A DNA stretch of 64,000 bases from Planctomycetota bacterium (GTDB lineage Bacteria > Planctomycetota > UBA8742 > UBA2392): positions 1 to 64,000 of the forward strand of contig JADLAK010000056.1 of assembly GCA_020848275.1 (NCBI GenBank). Reading direction: 5' to 3'. Below are positions 5,201 through 60,024 of this stretch, piece by piece. Numbering within the stretch: position 1 is the stretch's first letter; every line of letters starts with the position of its first letter. Both the position numbers and the translations under genes were made by a program. The notes under the pieces were generated by a model. It was not told the DNA's origin and searched no databases. It saw nothing but the letters and a program-made list of their open reading frames with translations.

Positions 5201-5324
5201 GCCGGATGACTCCTTGCGGGTTGTCTTGTCCATGCCCATAGATTACCGGAACCGGAAATAATCGGCCGACAACGTGGCTTATTTAATGTTCGGAATCGAA
5301 AATCGCTTGATACCCAAATCAAAA
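5201..5324 (-). promoter_or_regulatory. Second copy of the conserved promoter/5' leader block (paralogue of 2144-2284)
   Basis: Sequence similarity to 2160-2270: agattaccggaaccggaaataat; ttcggaatcgaaaatcgcttgatacccaaatcaaaaacgaaaag. Confidence 0.45.
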
Positions 5325-38043: not shown

Positions 38044-38781
38044 ATGGGCAGGCTCTTGCCATACTTGCTGTTGCTCGCCGCGATTCTGTTCGCGGCGCCG
38101 CTTGCCGCGCAGAGCGAGCCCGAGCGCGCGCGCGACATCATTTCGGGCGAACCCTACAAGGGCTACCGTCTGCACAGACCGGAGAAGCTTGAGCCCGCCG
38201 AGGAATCCAAGCCCTCGAAAGAAGAACCCTACCGCGGCGACCGGCGCGAGACCGGCGTGCGCAGCGACCCGCAGATGCCGCAGATCGGCTCCGGCAGCGG
38301 GCTGGCCGAAGCGCTCAAGATCGTGATGTGGGTGGTGCTGGGCATCGTCGTGGCCGGCGCGATTTTCCTGCTGGTGCGCGCGCTGCTTGACCGCCAGGCC
38401 AACCCCCGCGTCAAAAAGATGAAAGAAGAAGCGGCAGTCGAGGAAAAGAAAGCCGAACCGCCGCCGGCGCCACAGGACATCTCGACCCTCGAAGGCGACC
38501 TGCATGACGCGATAAGGGCGGGCAACTACGCGCTCGCTGCGTTGATCGCGTTCAAACTTTTCTGGCGGCGCTCCGGCTGGACGGGCTTTGCGGATATCCG
38601 CGATGTGAAGACCTGGCGCGACGCGTGCAAACAGATCCGCAAGGCCGACACGCGCCAGGAAGTCCGCCGCCTGCTTGGCCTGGTTGAGCGCGTGCGTTAC
38701 GGCAAACACTCACCCAGCGCAGCCGAATTCGAGGCATGGCGCACACGACTCGACGCAGTCGACACGAAGGTGACCGGATGA
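38044..38781 (+). CDS. DUF4129-like protein (signal peptide, TM helix, C-terminal helical domain) of the MoxR/DUF58 neighbourhood
   Basis: MGRLLPYLLLLAAILFAAPLAAQ signal peptide; TM helix IVMWVVLGIVVAGAIFLLV; C-terminal ...AIRAGNYALAALIAFKLFWRR... is typical of DUF4129; the stop overlaps the next start (ATGA). Confidence 0.55.
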   Translation: MGRLLPYLLLLAAILFAAPLAAQSEPERARDIISGEPYKGYRLHRPEKLEPAEESKPSKEEPYRGDRRETGVRSDPQMPQIGSGSGLAEALKIVMWVVLGIVVAGAIFLLVRALLDRQANPRVKKMKEEAAVEEKKAEPPPAPQDISTLEGDLHDAIRAGNYALAALIAFKLFWRRSGWTGFADIRDVKTWRDACKQIRKADTRQEVRRLLGLVERVRYGKHSPSAAEFEAWRTRLDAVDTKVTG

Positions 38782-40145
38782 AAGGCCAGACCGAAAACCT
38801 TCGCAAGCGACTGCTCACGCCCAAGATCGGCGGTCGCGAGACGATGTTTCGCTGGATCATGCTGGGCGTTTTTGCCGCCGGGCTCGGCTACGTGCTGATC
38901 CGCGGCGTGTTCGAACAACCCAAAAAGCCCGACAACTTCTCCAACAGTTACAGCGCCTCGCCCGGCGGCCACAGCGCGCTGGCGGAATTGCTCAGCGACC
39001 TCGGTTTCAAGGTGCAGCGCCGCGTCACGCCCCTGAATCGCCTCGGGCCTGAGTATTACGCGCCGGGCGGAAGCTGCGTCACGGTTCTGGAGCCCGACCC
39101 GGAACAAGTCGCCTCCAACAAGCGCGAGTTCAAGGACCTGCTTGGCGAAAACTGGCGCAGCCCGCGCGCGATCATCGCCCTGCCCAAGCGCTGGTACTAC
39201 GACACCCACGGCGGCGGCAAAGGCATCGTCGAAGTCGGCGAAGGCTGGTACCGCATCAGCGATGTGAACATCGTGCTTGCGGCGTGCGGCCTGAGCAGCG
39301 AACTCTCCGTGTTTCGCACCACGACCGAAACTTTTCTCTCGACTCCCAACCCCAACGCCTGGCGGCGCGAACACCCGATGTTCGGCGACGATGAACCCGT
39401 GCCGGAGTGGCGCGACCCCCTGCGCACGCGCCTGCACACCGAGCCCATCCAGGCCTTCCGCTTCGCCGACAACGGCGCACGCGGAAAGTACGAAGTGCTG
39501 ATCCAGACCGAACAAGGCGACCCGGTGGTAATCCAGCCGCGCGTCGAGCTTGGCCTGTCGCGCGCGATTTTGGTCAGCGACGCCGATTTTCTCAGTAACC
39601 GGTTCATCGGCCAGGGTAACGCCGCGGCGCTGGCGATGAAAGTTTTTCGCGCCGCCGACACCCGCACCTTCGACATCGACGAATCGATGCACGGGCTGGC
39701 GTCGCAGGCGTCCATTGAATATCTCGCGGCCACGCCGCCGGGCCTATGGTTCACGCTTTCGCTCTTCATCGTGCTGCTGATGTTCGGCTGGCGCGAGGCC
39801 ACGGTGCTGCGGCCAGCGGTTGCCGACACCGAGACGCGACGCTCGCGCGGCGTCGTGATCGAGGGCCTGGCGCGCATGATGGCTCGGGCGCGCGATTACG
39901 TGACGGCCTCGACGGCGCTTTTACGCCGCGCACACAACCACCTGGGCGCGGGGCCGGTGCAGGTGCACGCCTCGGGCATGGCGGGCTCGACCTCGAGCGC
40001 GCTGGCCAAGGACCAGAAGGCTACGCTGGAGGCGATCAAGATCATTCCCGGCGAAGGCGCCCTGAACGTACTGCGCGCCGCACAAACAGTTTCGTCGCTG
40101 AAAAATAAAGAACCGCGCAGGGCAACGCCGCAGAAAAAGACTTGA
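38778..40145 (+). CDS. DUF4350-like protein (N-terminal TM helix, periplasmic domain, second TM helix) of the MoxR/DUF58 neighbourhood
   Basis: TM helix WIMLGVFAAGLGYVLI, then NSYSASPGGHSALAELLSDLGFKVQRR (DUF4350 hallmark), late TM helix LWFTLSLFIVLLMFGW. Confidence 0.55.
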   Translation: MKGQTENLRKRLLTPKIGGRETMFRWIMLGVFAAGLGYVLIRGVFEQPKKPDNFSNSYSASPGGHSALAELLSDLGFKVQRRVTPLNRLGPEYYAPGGSCVTVLEPDPEQVASNKREFKDLLGENWRSPRAIIALPKRWYYDTHGGGKGIVEVGEGWYRISDVNIVLAACGLSSELSVFRTTTETFLSTPNPNAWRREHPMFGDDEPVPEWRDPLRTRLHTEPIQAFRFADNGARGKYEVLIQTEQGDPVVIQPRVELGLSRAILVSDADFLSNRFIGQGNAAALAMKVFRAADTRTFDIDESMHGLASQASIEYLAATPPGLWFTLSLFIVLLMFGWREATVLRPAVADTETRRSRGVVIEGLARMMARARDYVTASTALLRRAHNHLGAGPVQVHASGMAGSTSSALAKDQKATLEAIKIIPGEGALNVLRAAQTVSSLKNKEPRRATPQKKT

Positions 40146-40146
40146 T

Positions 40147-40212
40147 CCACGAAAGAACGCGAATTCTCACGAATTCGGGTTTCTATTCGTGCCTATTGGT
40201 GAAGATTCGTGG
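40147..40212. repeat. CACGAAT palindromic intergenic element, copy 2
   Basis: CCACGAAAgaaCGCGAATtctCACGAAT ... ATTCGTGcctattggtgaagATTCGTGG, between the DUF4350 and MoxR genes. Confidence 0.55.
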
Positions 40213-40260
40213 TGACTGGTTTTGGTTTTTCGATCAGGCAAACAAAAAGGATTCACACGC

Positions 40261-41277
40261 ATGGCCGGGCAAACTCCGTTTCAACCAGAGCCGGTGCAGC
40301 CGCAGGCCGCTAGGCCCGCCGACCCGCTGGCGCAAATGGCTCACTTCGCCGATCACCTCGAAAACGCCATTGCGCGCGTGGTCAAAGGCCAGGCGCACGT
40401 CGTGCGCCACATGCTCGTCAGCCTGCTGGTTCAGGGCCACGTGCTGCTTGAGGGCAACCCCGGCACGGCTAAGACGCTGCTGGTGCGCACGCTCGGCCGC
40501 CTGTGCAGCCTCGATTTCAAACGCATCCAGTTCACGCCCGACCTGATGCCAAGCGACATCACCGGCACCTCGATCTTCCGTCCCACAAGCGCGGAATTCG
40601 AGTTCCGCAAGGGCCCGGTGTTCACGCAGCTTTTGCTCGCCGACGAAATCAACCGCGCGCCCGCACGCACACAGGCCGCGCTGCTCCAATCGATGCAGGA
40701 ACGCATCGTCAGCGCCGACGGCGCCGACTACAACCTGGGCGATGTCTTCTGCGTTGTCGCGACGCAAAACCCGCTGGAGAGCGAAGGCACCTACCCGCTG
40801 CCGGAAGCGCAACTCGACCGCTTCCTCTTTAAGCTCATGGTCGATTTCCCCGACCAGACCACCGAACTTGAGATCTTCAAGCAGCACGGCGCGCCCAAAA
40901 GCGGCGACGACCTTGAGGCCGCGGGGCTGCAGCCGCTGTTTGGCCTCGATGAAATCCGCGCCATGCGCCAGCGCGTCTACGGCGTCGAGGTCCGCCCCGA
41001 CATCGCGGGCTACGCGCTTGCGATCATCCGCCACACGCGCGAACACCCGTTTTTGCGCGCCGGCGCCAGCACGCGCGCCGGCGTGATGCTGCTGCGTGCG
41101 GCGCGCGCCGCCGCCGCAACTTATGGCCGCGGTTTCGTGATTCCCGACGATGTGCGCGAGCTTGCGGTGCCGGCCTTGCGCCATCGCCTTTACCGCACGG
41201 CGGCCGCGGAACTCGAGGGCGTGAGCACCGACAGCATCCTCGAAGACATCATCTCGCGCGTACCGGTGCCCCGTTAG
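40261..41277 (+). CDS. MoxR-family AAA+ ATPase
   Basis: Walker A LLEGNPGTAKT, Walker B LLADEINRAPARTQAALLQSMQE, sensor and C-terminal lid; about 340 aa. Confidence 0.9.
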   Translation: MAGQTPFQPEPVQPQAARPADPLAQMAHFADHLENAIARVVKGQAHVVRHMLVSLLVQGHVLLEGNPGTAKTLLVRTLGRLCSLDFKRIQFTPDLMPSDITGTSIFRPTSAEFEFRKGPVFTQLLLADEINRAPARTQAALLQSMQERIVSADGADYNLGDVFCVVATQNPLESEGTYPLPEAQLDRFLFKLMVDFPDQTTELEIFKQHGAPKSGDDLEAAGLQPLFGLDEIRAMRQRVYGVEVRPDIAGYALAIIRHTREHPFLRAGASTRAGVMLLRAARAAAATYGRGFVIPDDVRELAVPALRHRLYRTAAAELEGVSTDSILEDIISRVPVPR

Positions 41278-41283
41278 TTTTTC

Positions 41284-41483
41284 GCCACAGATGAACACAG
41301 ATAACAGCAACCGCAGTAATCCACGGAAGACACGGAGAGCACGGGAAAAACAAAACGGTTTGAGCCACGAATTCACACCAATCATCACGAATTCTACGCC
41401 TCAGATTCGTGCCAATTCGTGAAGATTCGCGGCTCACCGGCTTTGCCGTCTCAGTTTTCCGTGAATTCCGTGGCCTCCGTGGA
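41284..41483. repeat. Compound CACGAAT/CACGG palindromic element, copy 3 (nested inverted repeats)
   Basis: The outer arms ccacggaagacacggagagcacggg / ccgtgaattccgtggcctccgtgg pair as an inverted repeat, and so do the inner arms ccacgaattcacaccaatcatcacgaattc / gattcgtgccaattcgtgaagattcgcgg. The 5' edge carries CACAG repeats. Confidence 0.55.
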
Positions 41484-41541
41484 CAAAAGCAGTTGCAGTT
41501 CTATGCGGTTTTGCGCCTTTGCGTGAGATGTCTTTTCAAGC

Positions 41542-42858
41542 ATGAACTACTCCCCCACCATTGTGTGTCTGCTGACCGCCGCAATACTTTGCGCGCTGGC
41601 GGCGCTGGCGCTGGGGTTTCCGTTTTTGTTGCCGCTGTGGGGCATCGCCACGGGCGTGTTTTTCCTGCTGATTTTCATCGATCTGGTCCTGCTGCCGCGA
41701 AAAAACGACCTGACGCTTGAGCGCAAAGCGCCCGGCGAGCAAGGCGTCGGCATCGATTTCCCGCTTGAGGTCCGCATCGGCAACGCGGGCTCGCGCGCGC
41801 TGCGCATGAAATTCTGGGACATCCTGCCCGTGGCCATGGACGGCCCGCGCGACGCCCTTGCGGCGACACTCACGCCCGGGAAAATTTCATGCTACACACG
41901 CCAATACCGGCTGCTGGATCGCGGCAAGATCGAACTCGGCCCGGCGACACTGGAGGCCTTCGGGCCGCTGCGCATGTTGCGTCGCATCGTTCGCCTCGAA
42001 GCCAAGGCGACGATCATGGGCATTCCCGGCGTCGAACTTTTGCAGAGCAACCGGCTGATTCTGCGCGCGATGCAGGACGCAGACAGCGGCATCAACCGTT
42101 CGCGCGGCGTGGGCCGCGGCGGCGAATTCGAATCTCTTGCCCCCTATGTGCCCGGCGACCCCGTGCAATCGGTCGACTGGAAGGGTTTTGCGCGCAGCGG
42201 CAACTTAACTGTGCGGCGCTACGAGCCCGAACGCCGCCGCCATGTCATGCTTTGCTGCGACGCGGGCCGCCTGATGGGCGGCCGCGTCGGTGGGCGACGC
42301 AAGGTCGACCTCGCTCTCGCGTCACTGGCGCGCGTCGCCGCGGCGGCGCTTCAGCGCGGCGACCTCGTGGGCCTATGCATTTTCGACGCGACGGTGCGCG
42401 TGCTGATACCGCCGCGCGCGGGCGGTGGGCAGCTCGCGCGCATCATCCGCGCGTCGCTCGAGGTCAGCCCCAGTCACGGTGAAACGGCGTTCACGCCCGC
42501 GTTTGTCGCGATGGGACATGCGCTCACGCGCCGCGCACTGGTGGTGCTGGCGACGGATTTCGACAACGAGGCGCAGGGCTGGGAGCTTCATCGCAACGTG
42601 GCGGCGGTGCACAAACGCCACGCGGTGATCGTGTGCAGCATGCGCGACCCGGTGTACCAGCAGACGCTGGGCGACGAAGTGCTAGACCTTCACGGCGCGT
42701 ACCGGCAACTTGCGTCGCTGACGCTGCTGGACGAGCGCCGCGATATCCTGTTCAAGCTGCAGAAGGTCGGCGTGCATACCATCGACGCCGAGCCCGACGA
42801 ACTTTCCGGCCCGCTGCTGAACATGTACGGCCGCGTGGTTTCCAGCGGCGCGCTATGA
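41542..42858 (+). CDS. DUF58 (vWA-like) protein, MoxR partner
   Basis: Two N-terminal TM helices; YVPGDPVQSVDWKGFARSGNLTVRRYEPE DUF58 signature; vWA-like C-terminal half. Confidence 0.85.
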   Translation: MNYSPTIVCLLTAAILCALAALALGFPFLLPLWGIATGVFFLLIFIDLVLLPRKNDLTLERKAPGEQGVGIDFPLEVRIGNAGSRALRMKFWDILPVAMDGPRDALAATLTPGKISCYTRQYRLLDRGKIELGPATLEAFGPLRMLRRIVRLEAKATIMGIPGVELLQSNRLILRAMQDADSGINRSRGVGRGGEFESLAPYVPGDPVQSVDWKGFARSGNLTVRRYEPERRRHVMLCCDAGRLMGGRVGGRRKVDLALASLARVAAAALQRGDLVGLCIFDATVRVLIPPRAGGGQLARIIRASLEVSPSHGETAFTPAFVAMGHALTRRALVVLATDFDNEAQGWELHRNVAAVHKRHAVIVCSMRDPVYQQTLGDEVLDLHGAYRQLASLTLLDERRDILFKLQKVGVHTIDAEPDELSGPLLNMYGRVVSSGAL

Positions 42859-42900
42859 GGTAAAATGGGGTGGCCGGGCGGGGCGAGCAGGAGTCCCGCC

Positions 42901-43122
42901 ATGCGCAAACCTTCCGTCAAAACCGAAACTCCGAAAGTTCCGCTGGTTGCCGGGCCGCGCGCCCGCGCGCATACGCTGATCGACGCGCTCTTCGACAACG
43001 CGATCCAGAGCGTGCTGCCTTACCTTGAGTACCTCATGGAGCAGCAACGCAAGGCCGCGGTGTCCAATCGCGCGGCGAAGGTCGTGTCGAACGACTCCAT
43101 GCGCAAGGACATGGGGATTTAG
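42901..43122 (+). CDS. Small antitoxin-like protein, paralogue 1 of the antitoxin upstream of RelE/ParE
   Basis: AHTLIDALFDNAIQSVLPYLEYLMEQ is similar to the next ORF (AHKLIDSLDGTELWAVLTYLEFIKNR); ends ...MRKDMGI versus ...IKREMGL. Confidence 0.45.
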   Translation: MRKPSVKTETPKVPLVAGPRARAHTLIDALFDNAIQSVLPYLEYLMEQQRKAAVSNRAAKVVSNDSMRKDMGI

Positions 43123-43163
43123 CGCGTCGCCGCCCGATGCTACGCTGGTGCACAGGTGAACCT

Positions 43164-43415
43164 ATGCGCGCGAAATCTGCTGAACATCCAAAGAAAGAAA
43201 ACCTTGGCGCCAAGCGAAAGGTTGCTCACAAGCTGATTGACTCGCTTGACGGCACTGAGTTGTGGGCGGTGCTGACGTATCTTGAGTTCATCAAGAACCG
43301 CGCGCGGATTATCGAGGACTACCTGGACCACAAGGATGCACAAGAGGCGATCAGGGAAGCTGAAGAAAAAGGCTACATACCGTGGGAGACGATAAAGCGC
43401 GAGATGGGCTTGTAA
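43164..43415 (+). CDS. Antitoxin-like protein immediately upstream of (1 nt from) the RelE/ParE toxin gene
   Basis: 84 aa with C-terminal ...EKGYIPWETIKREMGL, typical of RelE/ParE-partner antitoxin C-termini; the toxin start follows after TAAC. Confidence 0.5.
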   Translation: MRAKSAEHPKKENLGAKRKVAHKLIDSLDGTELWAVLTYLEFIKNRARIIEDYLDHKDAQEAIREAEEKGYIPWETIKREMGL

Positions 43416-43416
43416 C

Positions 43417-43680
43417 GTGGCCTATACCGTAGAGTTTACGCCTCACGGGAGTCGGGACTTTCGCGGCCTGCCTCGCGATGTTCAGGGGCGAATGGCGCCG
43501 AAAATCGATGCGCTCGCTAACAATCCGTTTCCCGCTGCCAGCACAAAACTCGTAAACACCGAAGACGAATATCGTCTACGCGTCGGCGACTATCGAGTGA
43601 TTTACCAGGTAAAACAGCAACGGCTTCTCGTCCTTGTGGTGAAGATCGCACACAGGCGCGAGGTTTATCGCAACATGTAA
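43417..43680 (+). CDS. RelE/ParE-family type II toxin
   Basis: 87 aa; YRLRVGDYRVIYQVKQQRLLVLVVKIAHRREVY is a classic RelE/ParE core. Confidence 0.8.
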   Translation: MAYTVEFTPHGSRDFRGLPRDVQGRMAPKIDALANNPFPAASTKLVNTEDEYRLRVGDYRVIYQVKQQRLLVLVVKIAHRREVYRNM

Positions 43681-43683
43681 TGA

Positions 43684-44253
43684 CTAGTTGCTAGGCTTGA
43701 TGTTGAGCATCTTCTGGATTTCTTCGAGGTCGCGTTTCATGCGCTCGTTGTCCTTGCGCAGTTCCTTAAGCTCTTTGCGATCAGCCTCGCTTTGCTCACC
43801 CTGCTTCTTTAGATCGTCTTCGAGCTTGGTTTGACGCTCATCCAGTTTGCCGGCTTTGGTCTTTTCCTTTTCGAACTCCGTCTTCACTTGCTGAAGTTCG
43901 TCTTTCGTTTCCTGGGCCTGTTTGCGCACTTCGCCGAGTTCCTTTTCAACTTTTTCGGCGTCGGCCTTCTTCGCTACATCCTTGCGCAACTCGCCAAGGT
44001 TTTTCTCAAGCGTCGATGCGCGATTCTCAAGGTCAGTGGTCCGCGTAGTTAGCACCTCCACACGCTGCTCAAGTGTGCTGATCTTTTTGTTACTTTCCGC
44101 TTGTTCGTGACGGATCGCCTGGATGTCTTGCTTTGTCGTGGCCTGGCTGGGAATCTGCTGCTGGATGTATTCGTAGATCAGCCACGCCGTGCCGCCCGCC
44201 AGCGCAAGCACGATCACGATCAGGCCCGTAAAGAGTGCACGAACCTTGTTCAT
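43684..44253 (-). CDS. Signal-anchored coiled-coil protein, Lys/Glu-rich; lower GC than its surroundings
   Basis: N-terminal TM helix LFTGLIVIVLALAGGTAWLIY, followed by a continuous heptad-rich K/E sequence. Confidence 0.5.
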   Translation of the reverse strand: MNKVRALFTGLIVIVLALAGGTAWLIYEYIQQQIPSQATTKQDIQAIRHEQAESNKKISTLEQRVEVLTTRTTDLENRASTLEKNLGELRKDVAKKADAEKVEKELGEVRKQAQETKDELQQVKTEFEKEKTKAGKLDERQTKLEDDLKKQGEQSEADRKELKELRKDNERMKRDLEEIQKMLNIKPSN

Positions 44254-44277
44254 GGGAAACTCCGATGCCCGCCCGAT

Positions 44278-44715
44278 TTAACCCGCCGGCTTGGGCGGGA
44301 TATTCCCCGGCTGGGGGACCATTCCCGACGCCGGTTTGACCTGCGCGGCAATGCCCGAGGCCGGCTTGGATTTGTCGACTTTCTGTGATTCGCGTTGGCG
44401 GTGCCGTTCTTTCATGACGATTTCGCGGTCGCGCAACTTGTCCAAAATCGCCTTGATGTCGATCTCGCGCACTTCGACCTCGCGGCCGCAAGTCGCGCAC
44501 TTCACCTGGTTGAGCTCGACGTCGCGCGAGGGAACTTCCATGCCCTCGTGGTCCTCGATGTAAAGGTTGCCGTTGGCCATCAGCATGCACGGGTAGGTGA
44601 ACGGCCGCGTAATGCTGAACTTGCCGCGGTCGCAATCGCCCACGATGGTCGTGAGGAAGGCGTCGGGAATCCACACCTTGCTGTTCACGCAGCACAATAC
44701 GCGGTCGAGGGTCAT
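44278..44715 (-). CDS. Small Cys-rich hypothetical protein (CC...C...C...CxxC), possibly metal-binding
   Basis: VLCCVNSKVW...GDCDRG...YPCM...KCATCGRE; lies in an operon 14 nt downstream of the giant coiled-coil gene. Confidence 0.4.
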   Translation of the reverse strand: MTLDRVLCCVNSKVWIPDAFLTTIVGDCDRGKFSITRPFTYPCMLMANGNLYIEDHEGMEVPSRDVELNQVKCATCGREVEVREIDIKAILDKLRDREIVMKERHRQRESQKVDKSKPASGIAAQVKPASGMVPQPGNIPPKPAG

Positions 44716-44729
44716 GTTTGCCTTTGTTG

Positions 44730-47700
44730 CTACTTTCGTTGTGGCGGCGCCAGGTCGGCCGCGCTCAGTTTCCCGGCGGCCTCATAACGTTCGCGGTCAA
44801 GCACGGTTGCCAGGGCCACGGCCCAACGCTGGTCCAGGTCGCGCAGCGCGTCAGCGTTGGAGCCTGCCTCGGCCACCACATAATAACACTGCTGCACACG
44901 ACCGTCAGGCAGGATCACCGGCTCGCCGCTGTAATAAAGATTCCACAACGCCTCCATCAGCTTGGACTTCGCGACCAGCGCGTCGGCCTCGCTCGCGGCA
45001 AGGTTGAAGCCGCGGTAGGGCGCGCAGAAACCGTCGAGCAGCGCAACGGCCTGCACCTGAGCCTTCACGGCGGCCTCATTGTAACGGTCGAGCGCGGCAA
45101 GTTGTTCCTGGTGCTCGCGATTGTCTTCGTCAAGGGCGCGTGCACGCAGGTATTCGATGCCCGCGTGCTCGGCGTGCACCTTCTCGAAGTCCGCTTGCAG
45201 CTTGCCGTAGTTGACGATCAGCGGCCGCGTCTTCATTTCATCGACCGAGGCCTGGATCAAGTCGCGAGCGGCGCCGCGCTTGGCGATTTCCTGGTCGAGG
45301 GCGACGCTCTTTTGTTTTTCGGTGTCGAGGCGCTTGATTTCGTCCTTGGCTTTGTCGCCGGCGTCGACAGCGGCAAGTAGCCCGGCAAGTTCGTCGCGCA
45401 GGGGCGTAGCGTCGTCCTCCAGTTTCTTGAGGGCGATGTCCTGGTCTTCGAGCGCGAACTGCGCCTTGGAAAGCACGTCGGCGGCTTCGCCCCACTGCAC
45501 GGCGAGCACTTCGAGTTCAGCCTTGGCGTCTTCCTGGGCCTTTTGCGCGGCCTCGGCATCTGCGACAGAAGCCTTCTGACTGGCTAACTCTTGCTTCCCT
45601 TCACTGACCTTGGCTTCCCATTCCGCTACTTTGCCCTCTGTAGTTACTACCTCGGCATTGCAATCTTTTTGTTTTTGCCATGCTTCGCCAAGTGCCTTCT
45701 CCGCATTCGTAAGGCTCAGTTCCGCAAGATTCAGAGATTCGTCGGCTTTGTTCTTCGCACCACGAGCTTTTTCCTCCACCACCTTTGCTTTTTTCAGGTC
45801 CTCCTGAAGAGGGCTTTTCGCGCGATCCTTCTCCGGCAGCGCGTCGATCTTCTTCTGGATTTCCTCGACAGTCTTTTCCGCCTTCTTTAGTTCTGCGTCG
45901 GCTTGTTCAGCCTCTGACTTCCTGTCCGCGGCAGCGACTCGAAGATCTTGATCCTGTTTTTCTAGTTGATCAAACTCTGCTTTTGCCCCTTCAGCTTTCT
46001 TTTTTGCTTCGGTCAGTCGCGCCTTGGCGAGTTTGAGCTGAGCCTCTGCGGTTTCCAAAGCGGGAATTACCTTCTTTTCTAGAGCAATTATAAGCCCCTC
46101 GACCAATTCCTTGGCCTGCGCGAGTTTTTCGGCGGTGTAGGGATTGGCCTTCTGCCTGGCCGAGATCTCGTCGACGGTCTTCTGCTTGTCCGTGACGGCG
46201 GCGGCCAGCGGCACGCGCGCGCGTTTGCCGTCGTCGATCTTCGACTCGAAGCCGTTGAGCTTGAAGCGCACGAGTTCGAGTTTGCTGCGCGCTTCGCCCG
46301 CCGCCTTTTCAATCTTGCGCTGGTCCTCAAGAAGCAGGTCGAGCGCCTTGCGCTTGGAGCCGTCGAGGTCGAAGTAGGGATCGGCCTTGAGTTTTTCGAT
46401 CTCGGCGTTGTCCTCGCCGATGCGTTTGATCAGCTTGTCGAGGTCGTTCTTGAGCGCGATCGCCTTGGTCAATTCCTGTTCACGCAGGTTCACTTCCGTT
46501 TCCAGTATCTGCGCCCGGCCCAGCAGCGTCTTGGCCGCGCTGCCCAGCGTCGCGAAGCTGTCGGCGCGCGACACCCAGCGCGCGACAATCTCGCGCATCA
46601 GCGGCGCCGAGGCCACCAGGTCATGGTCGCTGATGCGCAGCGGCCCCTTGGGCGGCAACTGGTCGTCGGGCAGCGTCTTGTTTTCGTCGATGCGCTTTTG
46701 CGCTTCCGGCACATTCTTCGAAAGCTCCGCCTCGAACTCACGTTCGAAGGCATAGATCTCGTCACGGCCGATGCGCACCACGTAACGTTCGCGGTACTCC
46801 AGCAGCGCCTGCGCAAGCTTGTGCAGGCGGCGTTCAAGCTCGAGTGTGCTGTTTTCGGCGCGCAGTGGATAGATTTCCGTCGTCAGCCAGTGCAGGTCGT
46901 CCTTGAAGCGTTCGGTCTGGTCCAGCCGCAACAACTTGAAGTTTTCGTTGCCCTGCTCGCCGACCACGGGCGAGGCCTTGCCGTAAAACACCATCCACTG
47001 GTCGCGGTTGACGGCCTGGCCCTGGCTATAGCCCTGGCGCGCGTTGACGGACCCGCGAAACACGCGCAACACCGCCAGCGGCGCCGCGTCGGCCCCGCCG
47101 GCCAGATTCAGCGGCAGCATCGCCAGCGCACGGTCGCCGGTCACAAGGTCGAACTCGGCCGTCGTGCCGGAAATTTCGTACTGCCCGCGGCCAAACGTGA
47201 CGGCGAACTTCTGGCCTGCGGCGGCAAAGCGCGCCCAGATTTCGCCCTTGGCGAGCGCGACGACCTGGCGCACGCCCTCGCGCGGCTCAAGCACCACCAG
47301 CGTCGAGTCAGGCGCGATCACGACGCGGTTGGCGAAGTCGAGTTGCAGCGTCGCCTGCGCGCCCGGCGAGGTCTGCACTTCCTGGTTCATTACCAGCCGC
47401 TTGCTGCGCGAGACCGAAAGCGGGCGTGAATCAAGCAGCACGCGGCCTTCGCTGCGTTCAAGCATTACGTCGGGCGGTGCGACGTAGGCCCCCGTGCGGT
47501 GCAGCAGGAAAAGCAACGCCGCCATTCCCGCTATCTGGAGCCAAAGCGCCGCGGCGGGCGGGATACCCATGGCGCGGTAAGGGCTGCGGGCGCGCACGCC
47601 GACCTGGATGCGCGACATGTCAAAGGGCGGAAACGTAAAGGCCTGGCGCAGCGCGATGGCCTGGTGGCGCAGGGCATCAAGCCGCGCCTGCGTGCCGCGG

Positions 47701-47795
47701 TCGGCAAGGGCCCGGCGCTCGATGCGGTCAGTGCCCTTGCGGTCGAGGCCGCCGCGCACGTATTCGCGGATCTCGGAGTCCGACTTCCAGGTCAT
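44730..47795 (-). CDS. Giant FecR-domain (anti-sigma-like) protein: cytoplasmic N-terminus, TM helix, FecR-like sensor domain, then a continuous coiled coil of about 800 aa
   Basis: Start assigned to MTWKSDSEIREY (ATG 47795-47793). It overlaps the sigma gene's TGA stop as ATGA. TM helix AAALWLQIAGMAALLFLL. FecR-like EGRVLLDS...LAKGEIWARF...FAVTFGRGQYEISGTTAEFDLV. The remainder is heptad-rich. Confidence 0.6.
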   Translation of the reverse strand: MTWKSDSEIREYVRGGLDRKGTDRIERRALADRGTQARLDALRHQAIALRQAFTFPPFDMSRIQVGVRARSPYRAMGIPPAAALWLQIAGMAALLFLLHRTGAYVAPPDVMLERSEGRVLLDSRPLSVSRSKRLVMNQEVQTSPGAQATLQLDFANRVVIAPDSTLVVLEPREGVRQVVALAKGEIWARFAAAGQKFAVTFGRGQYEISGTTAEFDLVTGDRALAMLPLNLAGGADAAPLAVLRVFRGSVNARQGYSQGQAVNRDQWMVFYGKASPVVGEQGNENFKLLRLDQTERFKDDLHWLTTEIYPLRAENSTLELERRLHKLAQALLEYRERYVVRIGRDEIYAFEREFEAELSKNVPEAQKRIDENKTLPDDQLPPKGPLRISDHDLVASAPLMREIVARWVSRADSFATLGSAAKTLLGRAQILETEVNLREQELTKAIALKNDLDKLIKRIGEDNAEIEKLKADPYFDLDGSKRKALDLLLEDQRKIEKAAGEARSKLELVRFKLNGFESKIDDGKRARVPLAAAVTDKQKTVDEISARQKANPYTAEKLAQAKELVEGLIIALEKKVIPALETAEAQLKLAKARLTEAKKKAEGAKAEFDQLEKQDQDLRVAAADRKSEAEQADAELKKAEKTVEEIQKKIDALPEKDRAKSPLQEDLKKAKVVEEKARGAKNKADESLNLAELSLTNAEKALGEAWQKQKDCNAEVVTTEGKVAEWEAKVSEGKQELASQKASVADAEAAQKAQEDAKAELEVLAVQWGEAADVLSKAQFALEDQDIALKKLEDDATPLRDELAGLLAAVDAGDKAKDEIKRLDTEKQKSVALDQEIAKRGAARDLIQASVDEMKTRPLIVNYGKLQADFEKVHAEHAGIEYLRARALDEDNREHQEQLAALDRYNEAAVKAQVQAVALLDGFCAPYRGFNLAASEADALVAKSKLMEALWNLYYSGEPVILPDGRVQQCYYVVAEAGSNADALRDLDQRWAVALATVLDRERYEAAGKLSAADLAPPQRK

Positions 47796-48433
47796 GCGAA
47801 GGACTCCTTGATAATGCCGCGCGACAACAGCGCGCCCGCCGCGGATTCGATCAATTCCTCGACCGACGCCTGCGGCGTGCCGAACCAATGCGCAATCAGG
47901 CCGGAGTCAAAGCCAAAGCGGAAATACAGCGCCAGCACCTCGCGTTCACGCGCCGAGATGCACTCAAGGCCCATGCGGGCACGTTTGCTGTGCACCTTGA
48001 CGTCCTGGGGACGAAAGCGCGTGGTGTTGTTTTCACGAAACGCGCGCAACGTGCCCTCGCTGACCATCTGCGCGAGGTCGCCTTCGGTAATCTGGAGTTC
48101 CGCCAGCACTTCGTCGAGCGTGTAGCTTTCGTTGTCCTTGGGCTCGACAGCGGGCGCCTCGAGCAGCCTGCGATGGCGCGCGCGCAGGGTGCGCACGGCG
48201 CTCTCGAACAAATAGCGTCGGAAACTTTCGTCGCTGGAGGTATCGGCGGCGCGCAATTGCGTGATGATGTCGACAACGATGTCCTCAAGCAGTTGTTCGA
48301 ACTCGTCGCCGCGCCTGGGAACAACGGCGGTGGCATAGTCGGCGAGGTCCGTGCCGTAGGAACGCAAAAGCAGGTTGATGGAGCCCAGCCGGGCCTTGAT
48401 GATGCTGTTGACGATTTTGGCCGGCTCAATCAT
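47792..48433 (-). CDS. Sigma-70-family (ECF-like) protein with an inserted excisionase-type HTH (HTH_17-like) module between region 2-like and region 4-like segments
   Basis: Region-2-like DLADYATAVVPRRGDEFEQLLEDIVVDIITQL. Insert LDEVLAELQITEGDLAQMVSEGTLRAFRENNTTRFRPQDV. Region-4-like ISAREREVLALYFRFGFDSGLIAHWFGTPQASVEELIESAAGALL. Confidence 0.55.
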   Translation of the reverse strand: MIEPAKIVNSIIKARLGSINLLLRSYGTDLADYATAVVPRRGDEFEQLLEDIVVDIITQLRAADTSSDESFRRYLFESAVRTLRARHRRLLEAPAVEPKDNESYTLDEVLAELQITEGDLAQMVSEGTLRAFRENNTTRFRPQDVKVHSKRARMGLECISAREREVLALYFRFGFDSGLIAHWFGTPQASVEELIESAAGALLSRGIIKESFA

Positions 48434-48474
48434 TCAATTGTGGATTGTGGATTGCGAATTGCGGATTGAAAGGC

Positions 48475-49776
48475 CTAAGAGCCTGTTTCCTTGTCTTCGT
48501 CGACGGCAAACAGCGCATCGACGAAGTTGCCGGCGTCAAAGCCCTGGATGTCGTCAAAGCTTTCACCCAGGCCCACGAATTTAACGGGCACCTCGACCTT
48601 TTCGTTGATCGTCAGTACCGCGCCGCCCTTGGCGGTGCCGTCAAGCTTGGCCAAAAACAGCCCCGTCACGTTGGCGGCGGCCTTGAAGGTCGTTGCCTGG
48701 TTCAAGGCGTTCTGCCCGGTTGTCGCGTCCAGTACAAGTACGGTTTCGTGGGGCCCGCCGCCCACCTTTTTCCCGATCGCCCGGGTGATCTTGGTAAGTT
48801 CGTCCATCAGGTTCTTCTGAGTATGCAGGCGGCCCGCGGTATCGACCAGCAGCACGTCGGCGCCGACTTCAACGGCGCGCTCGGCGGCCCGGTACGCAAC
48901 GGCCGCGGGATCCTCACGGTCCTTGCCCGTGACAATTTCGCAGCCGATGCGCTCGGACCACGTCGTGAGTTGCTGGACCGCCGCGGCGCGGAAGGTGTCC
49001 GCCGCCGCAAGCACCACGTGTTTGCCGTCACGCTCAAAGAAACGCGCGAGCTTGGCGACGCTGGTGGTCTTGCCCACGCCGTTGACGCCGACGACGAGGA
49101 TGATCGTCGGTTTAACAGGCGCAAAATTGACCGTGTTCCCTCGATGGGTGAGGCGGCGCTTTAGTTCGTCTTTGATGTACGGAAGTATCTGGTCGGTCGT
49201 TTCGATCTTCGTGCTCTTCCAGGCGCCGCGGATCAGGTCCATCAGGTATTCGCTGGTCTCGACGCCGAAATCCGCCTCGAGCATCGACTCCTCAAGCTTC
49301 GTCAGCGTTTCTTCGTCGATCTTTTTGCCCAGGCCGACAAGCCCCAGCACCTTGCGGCTGAAAATCATGCGCGTCTTCGAAATCGCGCGCGTGAGTTTCT
49401 TGAAGAAGCCGCGTTTCTCGGGCTGGGGCTCGGAAGGGTTTGATGCCGCCGCCTGCCTGCCGGAAACCGGCTTGTTGCGTCCCGACGATTTGGCCGCGGC
49501 ATTGCGGCCTGATCCGCCCTTGGCGGGCGCCTTGGGCGGCGGCAATTCGGTCGGCGGGTGGCTTGGCGGCACGGCGGGCGTGGGTGCGGTGCCCGGCGGT
49601 TTTGACGGCACAGGCGGCGTGCCCGGCGTGTTTGGCTTTGTCGGCGGCGGGGCCGAAGGCGGCAGCGCCGGCGGATTACCGGGCAGCGGCGCGGGCTTTT
49701 GCGGCGATCCCGGCTTGGGCGGGCCGGCGTCAGAAACCTCAGGCGGCGCTTTTTTCTTGAAGAAGTTGAATACCAC
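48475..49776 (-). CDS. ftsY: Signal recognition particle receptor FtsY with a Pro-rich N-terminal region
   Basis: NG domain: GVNGVGKTTSVAKLA, DTAGR, TKLDGTAKGG; N-terminal PPALPPSAPPPTKPNTPGTPP. Confidence 0.85.
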   Translation of the reverse strand: MVFNFFKKKAPPEVSDAGPPKPGSPQKPAPLPGNPPALPPSAPPPTKPNTPGTPPVPSKPPGTAPTPAVPPSHPPTELPPPKAPAKGGSGRNAAAKSSGRNKPVSGRQAAASNPSEPQPEKRGFFKKLTRAISKTRMIFSRKVLGLVGLGKKIDEETLTKLEESMLEADFGVETSEYLMDLIRGAWKSTKIETTDQILPYIKDELKRRLTHRGNTVNFAPVKPTIILVVGVNGVGKTTSVAKLARFFERDGKHVVLAAADTFRAAAVQQLTTWSERIGCEIVTGKDREDPAAVAYRAAERAVEVGADVLLVDTAGRLHTQKNLMDELTKITRAIGKKVGGGPHETVLVLDATTGQNALNQATTFKAAANVTGLFLAKLDGTAKGGAVLTINEKVEVPVKFVGLGESFDDIQGFDAGNFVDALFAVDEDKETGS

Positions 49777-49808
49777 TGGCGAATCCTCTGAGACGCCCCC
49801 GGCCCGGG

Positions 49809-50261
49809 TTAAACCTTCTGAGGACAGAGCGTCTGGTACAGCTTGTCGAGCAAGCCGTTCACAAACGCGCCGGATTTCTCGGTCGAATACTTTTTCGCCA
49901 GCTCAATGGCTTCACTGATCGTCACCTTCGGGGGCACTTCCTGCGAGTAAAGCAGTTCCGTGGTGCCAAGGCGAAGGATCGCGCGGTCAACAGCGGGCAT
50001 GCGCGACAGCAGCCAGTTGATGGCGACTTCCTGGATGCGCGCATCGACTTCGGGCAGGTGTTCGCGCGCAGAGGCGAAAATTTGCCGCGCATGGCGGCGC
50101 ACGTCGGCCTGGTCGGTCTCGCCCTGCAGCAGCACCTCAACCTGGTCCTCGAAGCCCTTTTTGCTGCCGAGGTCCATCACGTAGAGCAGCTTCAACGCAA
50201 GTTCGCGCGCGAGAGTGTCCTTGCGTGTACTTTCAGCGGGCCTGGAAGTTTCGGTCGTCAT
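49809..50261 (-). CDS. nusB: Transcription antitermination factor NusB
   Basis: [19 protein letters not shown]...[14 protein letters not shown]...EAIELAK; overlaps ribH (ATGA). Confidence 0.85.
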
Positions 50262-50764
50262 GGTTGCTGTTCGAACAGGTTGGCCATCTCAATGGCGGTG
50301 ACAGCCGCATCGTACCCTTTATTGCCCATTTTGGTACCGCAGCGTTCGATGGCTTGCTCGAGGTTTTCAGCGGTGACAACGCCAAAGATGCAAGGCACGC
50401 CGGTGCTCATCTGGGCATTGGAAACGCCGCGCGCGGCCTCGGTCGCGACGTGGTCATAGTGCGATGTCGCCCCGCGTATAATCACGCCGAGGCAAATCAC
50501 GGCGTCGAACTTGCCGCTTGCCGCAAACTTCTGCGCCGCCACGCCGAGCTCGAAACTGCCCGGCACTTTAATTTGAGTGTCGACCTTGCCGCCGTGGCGC
50601 CTGATGCCGTCAATGGCGCCTTCGACGAGCTTGTCCACAAGGTATTCATTGAAGCGCGCCGAAACGATGGCGAAGCGAAAGCCCTTGGCGAGAAGATTTC
50701 CTTCAATGAGATGCGGCTTGGCGGCGGCTGACGACTTGGACGGCACGAGGGAATTCTCCGGCAT
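50258..50764 (-). CDS. ribH: 6,7-dimethyl-8-ribityllumazine synthase
   Basis: [22 protein letters not shown]...[12 protein letters not shown]...[15 protein letters not shown]. Start set at MPENSLV; the ribH–nusB arrangement is the classical one. Confidence 0.85.
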
Positions 50765-51378
50765 CGGGGAGGCGGATTGTAGAGGTCGCGTTATATGCGA
50801 GCAAGCCGCTTGACGGCGATGTCCCACCCGGTAGATTATTGAGACCCCAAAGAAATCCCCTAGAACGCTGATTCAAAACCCTCTCGTGGGTGCTTTTTGG
50901 CGGCGAGCGTCGCATCTCTGCGTCACCCTCTCTGCACCGTATCGCTGGGGATACGGCTCGGTCGGGCTCCTTGATCGGTTCGCTCGGCGCTTAAAAATCA
51001 CCTTACTCAGGGTATTGAAACAGCGTCTGAGCGTGCAGGATGACTTTGACGTCGTTGCGCACATCCGCGCGCCGATGTTGTCTTGCCGCCGCCGTGATGA
51101 AAAATGCCTTCGAAGGGGCTTGGCAACGGCGAAAGAAGGGAATCAGTTGGGTGTGTATATCTTGCACGAAGGCAAGGATCACTGGAAACTCTCGTTCCAC
51201 AGAGGTTCAGCAAAGCGTTGTTTAGGCGTAAGTTAGGTTTACCAGAGGTATTGGCACGTTGTGCGCTGAATTCCTGGTCTGAGAAGGGTATGGCATCACA
51301 GGCGGTGCGGCCGGATGCCTGAAGTACTGTTGGAAAGCCGACGGCAATCAGCCGCGGCTGGGGTTCAAGGAGAATTTC

Positions 51379-58114: not shown

Positions 58115-59143
58115 CTACTTTCTCTTTTCCGGGTCAATGTCGATCAGCTTCAGCGTCGCGTTGGCGCGGTCGAAGTCCGCCTTGCTGCCCCTGAAAATCA
58201 CCGAGCGCGTTTTCTCGTAGGCGCCGATCTGGACTGAATACGCCGCGAGCTCGGTCGTGAACATCTCCCTCAACACTTTCGCCGCGTCATCGGCGGTGAT
58301 GTAAACCAGCCGCGCGGTGTAGGTGCCCTCGGCATAGGCCGGATCGGCGGCGTTGGCGTCGAGCTTCTGGAGACGCTGGTGCACGCGCGAGAGTTCGTCG
58401 CGCCGGCCGCTAATCAGAAGCGTGTTCGAGGTTTCGTGCAGCGTCATCTTCCAGCTTTCACCCTCGGCGCGAAGGCGCTCCATAGCTTGCGCGTACCGTT
58501 TGACCTGGCCGTTGCGCGGCGCGAAATCCTGCAGGACGAGGTCCTCGTCGCGCACGGCGGCATTGTCCGCCGCACGTCCGACCGCCAGCGCCGCAACAAG
58601 CCTGTCGGCGAAGTCCGAGACAATCAGCGTGTGCGTGGGCTCGAAAATTTCCACATGCCCCGATTGCGGCGACAGCACGCGGCGCACCTCACCGGCAAGT
58701 TTGGCAATGTCCGTGCGGGCGGCCTTGATGGCGACGGCGGCGAAGTAGTGTTTGTTGAGGTCGCGTTCGTCCTCGACAAAGGGCGCGTAGCGCGCGGCGT
58801 CCTGCCCGCGCACAAGTTGGTAGGTCGGGCCGGGCAGGCCCTCGACTTCGAAGGCCACGAGGTCGCAGCGGCGCAGCACCTCGAACAACAGCAGGCGGCG
58901 CGAGCGGTCGTCCTTGGGCGCGGTCGTTTCACTCGTTACGCGCCGGGGTTTGCCGTCTTCGCCGTTGAGCTCGGCCGCGTCGTAGACAAAGCCGCAACCA
59001 AGCGCGTCCTGCGCCCATTTCAGCACGTCGGTGACCGGCGCGTCCTTGAACTTCGGGTCGGGTTTGACCTCGTCAGCGGTGGAGGCGACAAACCCGAAGC
59101 ACAAGCAGCACACAAGCGCCGCGGCAAACGTGGACATCTTCAT
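58115..59143 (-). CDS. Secreted protein with three Secretin_N (NolW-like) type repeats but no secretin pore domain
   Basis: Signal peptide MKMSTFAAALVCCLCFGFVASTA. Repeats THTLIVSDFADRLVAALAV / SNTLLISGRRDELSRVHQRLQKLD / RSVIFRGSKADFDRANATLKLIDID. The start ATG at 59143 overlaps the upstream gene's stop (ATGA). Confidence 0.45.
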   Translation of the reverse strand: MKMSTFAAALVCCLCFGFVASTADEVKPDPKFKDAPVTDVLKWAQDALGCGFVYDAAELNGEDGKPRRVTSETTAPKDDRSRRLLLFEVLRRCDLVAFEVEGLPGPTYQLVRGQDAARYAPFVEDERDLNKHYFAAVAIKAARTDIAKLAGEVRRVLSPQSGHVEIFEPTHTLIVSDFADRLVAALAVGRAADNAAVRDEDLVLQDFAPRNGQVKRYAQAMERLRAEGESWKMTLHETSNTLLISGRRDELSRVHQRLQKLDANAADPAYAEGTYTARLVYITADDAAKVLREMFTTELAAYSVQIGAYEKTRSVIFRGSKADFDRANATLKLIDIDPEKRK

Positions 59144-60024
59144 GGCTTTTCTTTCTGTGTCGAGGACCGCTGTGCGGCGATCATGCCGAACGCAACGCCC
59201 GTCAGCAGCAACAACCCGCCCGCAGCCTGGAGCGGCGTGAGCGTAGACTTCGCAAAAACCTCGAACTGGTCCTTCAGCGCCAGCATCATCAAGAGCGCGA
59301 TCACGGGTTCGCCCAGGATCGCCAGGTTGATGTAAAACACCGGCACGTACTTCACCGCATAATGAAACATCGAATGGCCGATTAAAGTTGGGATCAGAAT
59401 GGCGCAACCGAGAAAAATCCACGTCTGGCCGGGGTAGCCCCAAAGCGCGTCGCCCTTGGCCAGCGCCACCGCAAGGCTGGTCAGGCCGCCAATGCCGTAG
59501 AGCGCCGTCAGGTAGCCGACCAGCGACATTTTGGGCCGCAACCCGCGCCCGAACGAATAACTGATCACGATAAGCAGGCAGCACGCGAGCACCATGCCGT
59601 CGCCGATCAATTGGCGCATATCGGTAATCGAGTCGTTCCAGCCAAACAGCACGATGCCGGCAATGGCGATAATGCTGCTTATGGCGACCCAGCGCGTGAT
59701 CGGCTCCTTGAGCCAGATCGCGCCGATGGTCGCCGCCATCAGCGGCTGCGCGCCAAGCAGCACGACGGCGCTTTCCTTGCTTGTGTGGTCAAAGGCCCAG
59801 GTAAAAAACACGAAGTGAAAGCCATAAAGCACGCCCGAGAGCAGCAGTTTCAGGCGGTCGGCGGTATTCAGCCGCTTGAAATCCTCGGCCAGCCGCGGCG
59901 CGGCCAGCGGCATCAATATCAGCGTTACGCTGAGCATGCGCCAGGCGGGCAGCGCAAAAGGGCCAATGGGCGCGAGCAGGATAAAGGGCCCCGCGGTCGA
60001 AACCGCGATCAGGCCAATCAGCAT
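59140..60024 (-). CDS. EamA/DMT-superfamily transporter (10-TM drug/metabolite exporter family)
   Basis: Two EamA-like halves of hydrophobic helices. Start placed at MLIGLIAVS (ATG 60024), because the longer track ORF would run through the repeat element at 60091-60158. Confidence 0.6.
   Translation of the reverse strand: MLIGLIAVSTAGPFILLAPIGPFALPAWRMLSVTLILMPLAAPRLAEDFKRLNTADRLKLLLSGVLYGFHFVFFTWAFDHTSKESAVVLLGAQPLMAATIGAIWLKEPITRWVAISSIIAIAGIVLFGWNDSITDMRQLIGDGMVLACCLLIVISYSFGRGLRPKMSLVGYLTALYGIGGLTSLAVALAKGDALWGYPGQTWIFLGCAILIPTLIGHSMFHYAVKYVPVFYINLAILGEPVIALLMMLALKDQFEVFAKSTLTPLQAAGGLLLLTGVAFGMIAAQRSSTQKEKP

Follow-up and report, generated by a model that had tools for sequence, protein, structure and literature searches.

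A sigma-like head with an inserted winged helix and a FecR-domain protein with a stalk of constant length, encoded next to ftsY in uncultured Planctomycetota

Introduction

Extracytoplasmic function (ECF) sigma factors and their anti-sigma partners rank third among the major routes by which bacteria transduce signals, and what sets the known ECF variants apart is mainly the sensor domain or a terminal extension. A compact block of four minus-strand genes from an uncultured planctomycete raises the question of whether such a pair, with a domain inserted into the sigma-like protein and a long helical extension on its membrane partner, still works as a sigma switch or serves another end. The block lies in a 64,000-nucleotide stretch of DNA, here called the window (contig JADLAK010000056.1, positions 1–64,000, assembly GCA_020848275.1, Planctomycetota bacterium of the lineage UBA8742; UBA2392), and all coordinates of the block refer to this 64-kb window. 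It encodes a sigma-like protein (the head), a giant FecR-domain membrane protein, a small Cys-rich protein and a coiled-coil membrane protein (the fourth protein). The original prediction, made from the DNA letters alone, saw in it a sigma-controlled module that might be an envelope-spanning signalling device or a cytoskeleton-like scaffold coupled to an ECF switch. Here, we analyse the conservation, predicted structure and topology of the four proteins and weigh the readings that they allow.

Results

Conservation of the locus and fusion of the first two genes

The open reading frames (ORFs) of the window place the four minus-strand genes exactly where they had been predicted (Table 1). The TGA of the sigma-like gene overlaps the ATG of the giant gene in an ATGA at 47792–47795 (...TTCGCATGACCTGG...), and the gaps after the giant and Cys genes are 14 and 24 nucleotides, both as first described. 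A longer version of the giant gene starting at a TTG at 47888 was rejected; the alignment of homologues begins at the ATG at 47795. In NCBI, the sigma-like protein is named 'sigma-70 family RNA polymerase sigma factor' (MCC6574211.1) and the giant protein 'FecR domain-containing protein' (MCC6574210.1). The content of guanine and cytosine shows no compositional break across the block. A promoter and terminator scan, which is uninformative for Planctomycetota, finds no minus-strand terminator-like site inside the block and a single minus-strand promoter-like site at 44908–44880, within the giant gene and close to its 3′ end.

The family is rare: among 5.8 billion proteins, the giant protein is represented by 14 clusters and the sigma-like protein by three. 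Our first-round set comprises 21 loci, 16 from a scan of species-representative genomes and five contigs from a protein look-up. All 16 genome-scan loci belong to metagenome-assembled genomes of Planctomycetota or Planctomycetaceae, with one locus returned per genome record. In tblastn searches, the gene order ftsY, sigma-like gene, giant gene, Cys gene and fourth gene is kept in all 21 loci, with nusB and ribH preceding it in most, and the best segments are 64–85% (FtsY), 36–48% (head) and 32–45% (giant) identical to the window proteins. Ten more metagenome loci contain at least the distal genes, and five of these show the full order from ftsY on. Wherever a locus extends far enough, the shared order comes with tightly spaced genes. 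The four genes are a conserved unit and do not adjoin by chance. Downstream of the fourth gene, nothing is conserved in the annotated loci.

In 14 distinct loci, the sigma-like and giant genes are fused in frame into one ORF of approximately 1310–1340 residues, which often begins at a GTG one codon past the ftsY stop. The two genes are split in five loci, and this form is found only in the sub-clade of the window (the window, L001 and L005–L008), with a stop/start overlap in the window and in those loci that were checked. Since head and giant are fused in some lineages and split in others, they probably act together, and this Rosetta-stone pattern is classical evidence that the two would form one working unit.

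About 60 nucleotides preceding the sigma-like start are near-identical in three split-clade loci, L005 (6590–6652), L035 and L006, and include the direct repeat TCGACAAnCGCG twice. This repeat-bearing segment might serve as a leader, as an operator or as a signal for translation.

Predicted structure of the sigma-like head

Profile searches detect the head faintly. In the window protein, Sigma70_r2 (residues 22–89), HTH_17 (residues 104–145) and Sigma70_r4 (from residue 156) all match under the Pfam cutoffs; the best E-value for Sigma70_r2 is 0.017, and this family is detected in one of 20 homologues. TIGR02937 matches the window head with E = 1e-6 (28.5 bits; cutoff, 42.9), and eight of the 20 homologues match this model at E ≤ 0.01, as seven do TIGR02983. 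A profile built from the 20 homologues and searched against the PDB finds the sigma4 domain of SigD (3vep_D, E = 0.006) and, more weakly, CnrH, RpoE and a PhyR-like regulator. Four region-2 motif positions, E50, D51, D55 and Q59, are invariant among the homologues.

We obtained an AlphaFold2 (AF2) model of residues 1–327 of P0012, a fused homologue whose head is 36% identical to the window protein. The predicted local distance difference test (pLDDT) has a mean of 75.6, with values of 81–92 in the sigma2 domain and approximately 90 in the sigma4 domain. A fold search with this model recovers sigma2, an Xis-type winged helix and sigma4. The sigma2 domain matches SigW, CnrH, region 2 of SigC and region 2 of sigmaE; the sigma4 domain also matches ECF folds, and PhyR is present among both the fold and the sequence matches of the head. 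The modelled structure settles the fold as that of an ECF sigma factor carrying an inserted Xis-type winged helix. The original description of a sigma-like protein with an inserted excisionase-type helix–turn–helix is thereby borne out, and sigma2 and sigma4 are both present.

Topology of the giant protein

As predicted, the giant protein crosses the membrane once and contains a FecR domain. Residues 78–99 form the sole hydropathy window of at least 1.6, and a single transmembrane (TM) helix is present in every homologue. Within this helix, at least 80% of 22 homologues keep P79/P80, and hardly any variation is seen at P80 and A83. Site-2 protease substrates need helix-destabilising residues; by analogy, the Pro-Pro pair and the small residues of the helix may fit this requirement, and they are the only hint of such processing. 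In the P0012 model, the segment that precedes the TM helix is composed of four short helices with pLDDT values of 51–76, and a single homologue gives a faint zf-HC2 match here (E = 0.15).

The FecR domain (PF04773) is detected in the window protein with 28.3 bits against a cutoff of 24, spanning residues 139–215. Scores in homologues are 17–30 bits where the domain is detected, and the homologue P0013 has no match. In homologues of the fused clade (loci L002 and L009–L021), the FecR-like region is interrupted by a PDZ domain, at residues 478–527 of P0012 and 500–556 of P0013; members of the window clade have no PDZ domain in this region (alignment A1). FecR and FoxR have a Gly-Thr self-cleavage site, which we take to lie at the position matching SGTT, residues 209–212 of the window protein. 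A self-cleavage site of this type was rejected for the giant protein; the SGTT is found only in the split clade of the window and is not kept in the fused clade.

Because the fused sigma-like head would be cytoplasmic and a single TM helix follows, we infer that the FecR domain, the PDZ domain, the stalk and the C-terminal domain are extracytoplasmic. This topology is consistent with the envelope-spanning device of the original prediction and contradicts a cytoskeleton-like scaffold in the cytoplasm.

A helix-rich stalk of constant length and a C-terminal domain

The FecR-like region is followed by a strongly conserved neck motif (RFKDxLHWL...PLRAEN) and by a helix-rich stretch of approximately 580 residues (residues ∼320–905). 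Ala, Glu, Lys, Leu, Gln, Arg and Asp make up 69–80% of each 100-residue block between residues 401 and 900. The stretch had been described as about 800 residues of uninterrupted coiled coil, which overstates it: in the window protein, 14 prolines fall between residues 363 and 858, and the helical part ends before a separate C-terminal domain.

The length of the stalk hardly varies. In 22 homologues with approximately 31% identity, the segment corresponding to residues 401–652 measures 251–253 residues and that corresponding to residues 653–923 measures 271–272, and the two segments meet near the stalk midpoint at an invariant Pro-containing motif, ALPE (residues 652–655). Searched against the PDB, the A1 profile matches only coiled coils of a generic kind, namely colicin R-domain hairpins, SipB, Smc arms and tropomyosin. 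Since the stalk consists of two near-equal arms with a conserved midpoint loop, its sequence suggests an antiparallel hairpin of ∼37 nm. Alternatively, an extended rod would be up to ∼80 nm long.

The last ∼100 residues form a distinct, aromatic-rich domain in which C924 and C970 are conserved. Residues 924–1021 match no family in Pfam or NCBIfam, and profile matches in the PDB are confined to coiled coils. The two conserved cysteines would fit an oxidising extracytoplasmic compartment.

The partner proteins

The small protein contains six cysteines within its first 76 residues and is indeed Cys-rich, as had been noted. Four of them (C9, C28, C73 and C76; window numbering) are invariant, also in distant homologues. 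It is the most conserved component, with 61–90% identity across 35 clusters. Its model has a beta-rich core and a long basic C-terminal helix; the fold search gives no match, and no TM segment is found at a hydropathy threshold of 1.6. Four invariant cysteines in a soluble protein fit a zinc site; the protein is probably zinc-binding and probably cytoplasmic.

An exhaustive HMMER search with the Cys protein yields 11 matches. Five are short proteins of 36–53% identity that keep the conserved motifs; P0058 and P0061, two long proteins matching in multiple stretches, were discarded as low-complexity or repeat artefacts. The homologues at L025 (6671–7978) and L027 (8001–8357) have no sigma or giant neighbours; one lies behind a secreted GyrI-like protein and one stands alone. 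At L023, the Cys homologue is followed by a 506-residue protein (969–2489) whose N-terminus is cytoplasmic and which further comprises a TM helix and a 250-residue coiled coil. The N-terminus of this neighbour appears HTH_17-like by eye, a resemblance that we rejected (hhalign probability, 0.6%; no Pfam match).

At its N-terminus, the fourth protein carries a TM helix, and it is rich in Lys and Glu (26 of each in 189 residues), in agreement with its first description. Hydropathy windows above the threshold start at residues 1–12 and peak at residues 8–26, and the sequence of the helix, GLAGGTGYLIYERIQ, is highly conserved. The coiled coil varies in sequence and length; the extreme C-terminus is conserved as LGLxxPxPxN (alignment A5). 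This tail may, we infer, dock on a PDZ-bearing partner. PHROG 739, an Rz-like spanin family, matches the fourth protein with E = 1.4e-7, a weak match of a kind prone to TM and coiled-coil bias, and the NCBIfam Rz-like LysB model matches more weakly still. We take these matches as architectural resemblance, not as membership.

Features of the block and other genes of the window

The features of the block are listed in Table 1. The N-terminus of FtsY is extended by ∼120 residues in which Pro, Ala and Lys abound; in related loci, FtsY measures 356–508 residues, so the length of this extension varies.

Table 1. Coordinates of the block, of the predicted domains of its proteins and of the genes upstream
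Feature	Position	Strand	Basis or remark
ribH (50258–50827), nusB (49809–50261) and ftsY (48475–49776)	48475–50827	−	Upstream context; Pfam labels on homologous loci
Putative leader between ftsY and sigma-like gene, 41 nucleotides, with CAATCCxCAAT repeats	48434–48474	−	
Sigma-like protein, 213 residues	47792–48433	−	MCC6574211.1; separate gene in window, fused with giant in most related species
Sigma2-like domain, residues 1–95	48149–48433	−	
Excisionase-type winged helix, residues 104–147, at the position of the ECF sigma2–sigma4 linker	47993–48124	−	
Sigma4-like domain, residues 155–213, with acidic 'recognition' helix	47795–47971	−	Profile match, pLDDT, net charge
Giant FecR-domain membrane protein, 1021 residues from ATG	44730–47795	−	MCC6574210.1
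Putatively cytoplasmic N-terminal segment, residues 1–77, four short predicted helices	47565–47795	−	Anti-sigma-domain-like by pattern only
TM helix, residues 78–99	47499–47564	−	Hydropathy, conservation
Putatively extracytoplasmic FecR-like beta region, residues 100–295 (Pfam FecR, residues 139–215, at 47151–47381)	46911–47498	−	
Neck (RFKDxLHWL...PLRAEN) and helix-rich stalk, ∼580 residues	45027–46910	−	Alignment, composition, prolines, heptad signal
C-terminal domain, residues 924–1021, C924/C970, LWxLYY and CYYV motifs	44733–45026	−	Alignment A1
Small soluble four-Cys protein, 145 residues	44278–44715	−	ORF
Bitopic coiled-coil membrane protein (fourth protein), 189 residues	43684–44253	−	ORF

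Three small plus-strand ORFs at 42865–43680 converge on the end of the block. The last of them (43417–43680, +) resembles RelE/ParE-type toxins by eye, and the two that precede it share an antitoxin-like motif, LIDxL...YLE. Further genes lie at 38736–42858 (+) and encode a DUF4350 protein followed, by eye, by a MoxR-type AAA ATPase (40222–41277) and a DUF58-like protein (41542–42858); from this inspection, they would form a Bat/MoxR-type operon. Elsewhere in the window, a tricorn-like protease (PD40 repeats, tricorn PDZ, S41 peptidase) and a secretin-N-domain protein were noted among the minus-strand regions 6756–10202, 58115–59584 and 2285–5239. Large ORFs of 984, 611, 571 and 515 residues have no Pfam match.

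Discussion

What kind of system do these four genes encode? We see about an even chance that the block is a lineage-specific, inner-membrane-spanning, ftsY-linked module of uncultured Planctomycetota that arose from an ECF sigma factor together with an anti-sigma factor of the FecR type and whose head can be released. In most species, the module would be built around a single chain that runs from the sigma2/winged helix/sigma4 head through ∼75 residues of short helices and the TM helix to a FecR-like beta domain with its PDZ domain, the ∼580-residue stalk and the two-Cys domain. In the window genome, the head is encoded by a separate gene, which would be translationally coupled to the giant gene via the ATGA. 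The juxtamembrane helices would keep the head at the membrane, much as an anti-sigma domain keeps a sigma factor. The outer part would span the periplasm, either as a rod of up to ∼80 nm or as a ∼37-nm hairpin, and together with the coiled-coil partner it might report on, or bridge to, a partner in the outer envelope. The output, if there is any, would be regulated proteolysis that frees the head, in the manner of Pseudomonas putida IutY (ECF243), a FecI-type sigma factor fused to a membrane anti-sigma factor that is activated by Prc and RseP proteolysis (PMC8999054).

Several observations weigh against this reading. The head scores under every curated sigma cutoff (Pfam and TIGR02937). In the model, the folded winged helix fills the whole interval between sigma2 and sigma4, with flanks of only ∼10 and ∼9 residues. 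In ECF holoenzymes, the sigma2–sigma4 linker must enter the RNA polymerase cleft and is essential (sigma3.2-like; sigmaH), and transcription is abolished when the linker is deleted or swapped for a sequence known to be disordered (PMC6411747). The sigma4 recognition helix (residues 186–203) carries a mean net charge of −1.3 in 20 homologues, with a range of −3 to +1, and its family consensus, 'aeveeliekaaeal', aligns with 'GAVRVAQHRALQRL' in SigD, our comparison for canonical sigma4 recognition helices, which are basic. In sigmaE, it is the basic residues of the region-4.2 recognition helix that contact the −35 element. The helices of the winged helix (residues 108–129) are likewise net acidic (−2.4), and its wing is mildly basic (+1.1). 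With no normal sigma2–sigma4 linker and two net-acidic reading helices, the head is a doubtful candidate for classical recognition of −35/−10 promoters, and an ECF switch of the conventional type, as first proposed, is doubtful too. The output of the head may be something other than ordinary sigma activity.

The membrane protein and the gene neighbourhood add further points on the same side. Beyond the faint zf-HC2 match, the sequence contains no detectable anti-sigma domain, and the segment where one would be sought has low pLDDT values. Pfam detects no FecR C-terminal (FecR_C-type) domain in the giant protein, and no TonB-dependent receptor is present among the annotated neighbours (Pfam labels on three related loci; window ORFs by reading). 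The fused gene directly follows ftsY and has no promoter space. In most species, the head is part of the same polypeptide as the giant protein, is encoded directly 3′ of ftsY and has no room for a promoter of its own. The term 'sigma-controlled module' is not supported. Placement after ftsY and universal conservation in the clade look like housekeeping, unlike an accessory stress switch.

Many of these points are shared by the main alternative, possible though somewhat unlikely, in which the head has lost sigma function and is a permanently tethered cytoplasmic docking module, for example for the four-Cys protein, and the whole complex acts constitutively as a fixed-length ruler or tether of the envelope, is made along with FtsY and involves neither release nor transcription. 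PhyR shows that a sigma-like domain can exist without sigma function, in that case as a mimic acting as anti-anti-sigma factor, and PhyR is among the fold and sequence matches of the head. A head that is covalently tied to a membrane protein in most species, a gene that starts directly past the ftsY stop, a single locus per genome record with invariant synteny, a folded domain instead of the linker that is essential in real ECF factors, two acidic reading helices, a stalk constant to ∼1 residue and a Cys partner conserved at about the level of FtsY all speak for such a complex. It accounts less well for the invariance of E50, D51, D55 and Q59 in region 2, for the FecR domain and the PDZ domain of the fused clade, which are typical of signalling and proteolysis pathways, and for the split form, in which the covalent tether is dispensable; moreover, IutY is a fused sigma/anti-sigma protein and yet a real, releasable sigma factor. 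We rather doubt, but entertain tentatively, the more definite proposal that a frozen sigma/anti-sigma anchor docks the zinc-binding partner through its head, and that the 40- to 80-nm stalk and the spanin-like partner fix or sense how far the inner membrane lies from the outer layers. The database names would point elsewhere, to an ordinary stress pair of a divergent ECF sigma factor and its FecR anti-sigma factor, with the coil as a passive spacer and the downstream genes as regulon members or unrelated. This explanation agrees with the ECF fold of the head, the FecR score above cutoff and the overlap of the sigma and anti-sigma genes, which is the usual ECF layout; nevertheless, it is unlikely, given a linker replaced by a winged helix, reading helices of acidic character, a spacer whose length is constant to ∼1 residue, downstream genes that are co-conserved wherever the locus is long enough (the Cys protein being the most conserved of all), the lack of space for an autoregulatory promoter in the fused clade and the lack of a TonB-dependent transducer among the annotated neighbours.

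Two other explanations take their cue from single features of the proteins. The giant and fourth proteins give weak matches to SMC, Rad50, crescentin and filament proteins, as a cytoplasmic scaffold of the SMC/Rad50 or intermediate-filament type would; these matches are far under the cutoffs (18.6 bits versus 567) and reflect coiled coil only. The giant protein has no ATPase head, hinge or zinc hook, its coil is instead flanked by the FecR/TM region and the C-terminal domain, and a single TM helix after a cytoplasmic head would put the coil outside the cytoplasm, all of which makes a scaffold of this kind very improbable. That the block is left over from a mobile element, prophage or defence system, with an excisionase helix–turn–helix, a helical protein resembling a tape measure and a spanin-like protein, is hardly credible. 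Such an origin could draw on the HTH_17/Xis-type fold, the PHROG spanin match and the fixed helical length, but the same chromosomal site after ribH, nusB and ftsY is occupied in every locus that is long enough, the region shows no compositional break, and no phage genes are adjacent in the annotated loci. In addition, the sigma-like and giant proteins have no PHROG matches, and PADLOC is blank for three proteins and gives only JetC/LmuB coiled-coil noise for the fourth.

The module that we favour has several partial precedents. IutY is the closest described design: as in most of the homologues described here, a single chain starts with an ECF-type domain and continues through one TM helix into an outer part, which in our family contains the FecR domain. 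In contrast to IutY, the window form consists of two genes, the linker is replaced by a winged helix and the reading helices are acidic. The planctomycete protein has a ∼580-residue stalk, a new C-terminal domain and two extra conserved partners; no FecR C-terminal module is detected and no TonB-dependent transducer is found among the annotated neighbours, and the genes occupy a housekeeping position after ftsY. The FecI/FecR/FecA system has in common with our locus that the sigma-like gene overlaps the next gene, whose product crosses the membrane once and has its FecR domain in the periplasm, but our locus differs from it by the lack of a TonB-dependent receptor among the annotated neighbours and of a FecR_C-type domain, and by a sigma-like protein that scores under the ECF cutoffs. 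The actinobacterial groups ECF48, ECF52 and ECF53 (e.g., SCO4117) combine a sigma factor, a TM helix and an extracytoplasmic domain, with proposed proteolytic activation (PMC8999054). They resemble our family in this one-component design; however, they have a zinc-finger anti-sigma domain, extensions of no more than ∼400 residues and, in SCO4117, a carbohydrate-binding domain, and they are devoid of a FecR domain, a coiled-coil stalk and a linker insert.

In contrast to PhyR, the head has no receiver domain and is membrane-tethered, and genuine ECF sigma factors are better structural matches. The fourth protein shares with the phage i-spanin Rz an N-terminal TM helix and a coiled coil that should be periplasmic, as well as the weak PHROG match, which may reflect TM and coiled-coil composition only; unlike Rz, it is encoded in a chromosomal housekeeping locus, and no o-spanin, holin or endolysin is found among the window ORFs (by reading) or the annotated genes of three loci. 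The giant protein would span the periplasm from the inner membrane in the same way as TolA and TonB. We found no paper that describes this architecture and none that combines Planctomycetes, FecR, coiled coil and sigma factor, and the ECF reclassification paper mentions neither 'coiled' nor 'excisionase' nor 'ftsY'. Whereas the sigma fold, the FecR domain, the single TM helix and the fusion of sigma and anti-sigma factor all have precedents, the winged helix at the linker position, the fixed-length stalk with its C-terminal domain, the two co-conserved partners and the placement after ftsY are new.

Function is read here from architecture, in organisms that are uncultured, and the general design is precedented by IutY. 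Within these limits, a folded domain of the DNA-binding type as linker would mean either a new way to build a holoenzyme or, after PhyR, a second repurposed sigma fold. A stalk that is constant to ∼1 residue at ∼30% identity carries the signature of a ruler or of an arm of fixed geometry. The housekeeping operon with ftsY in every locus that is long enough suggests a core envelope function in a lineage without cultured members. Planctomycetota cells are known for their enlarged periplasm, and if the stalk does act as a ruler or tether, the module would bear on how this unusually wide compartment is organised.

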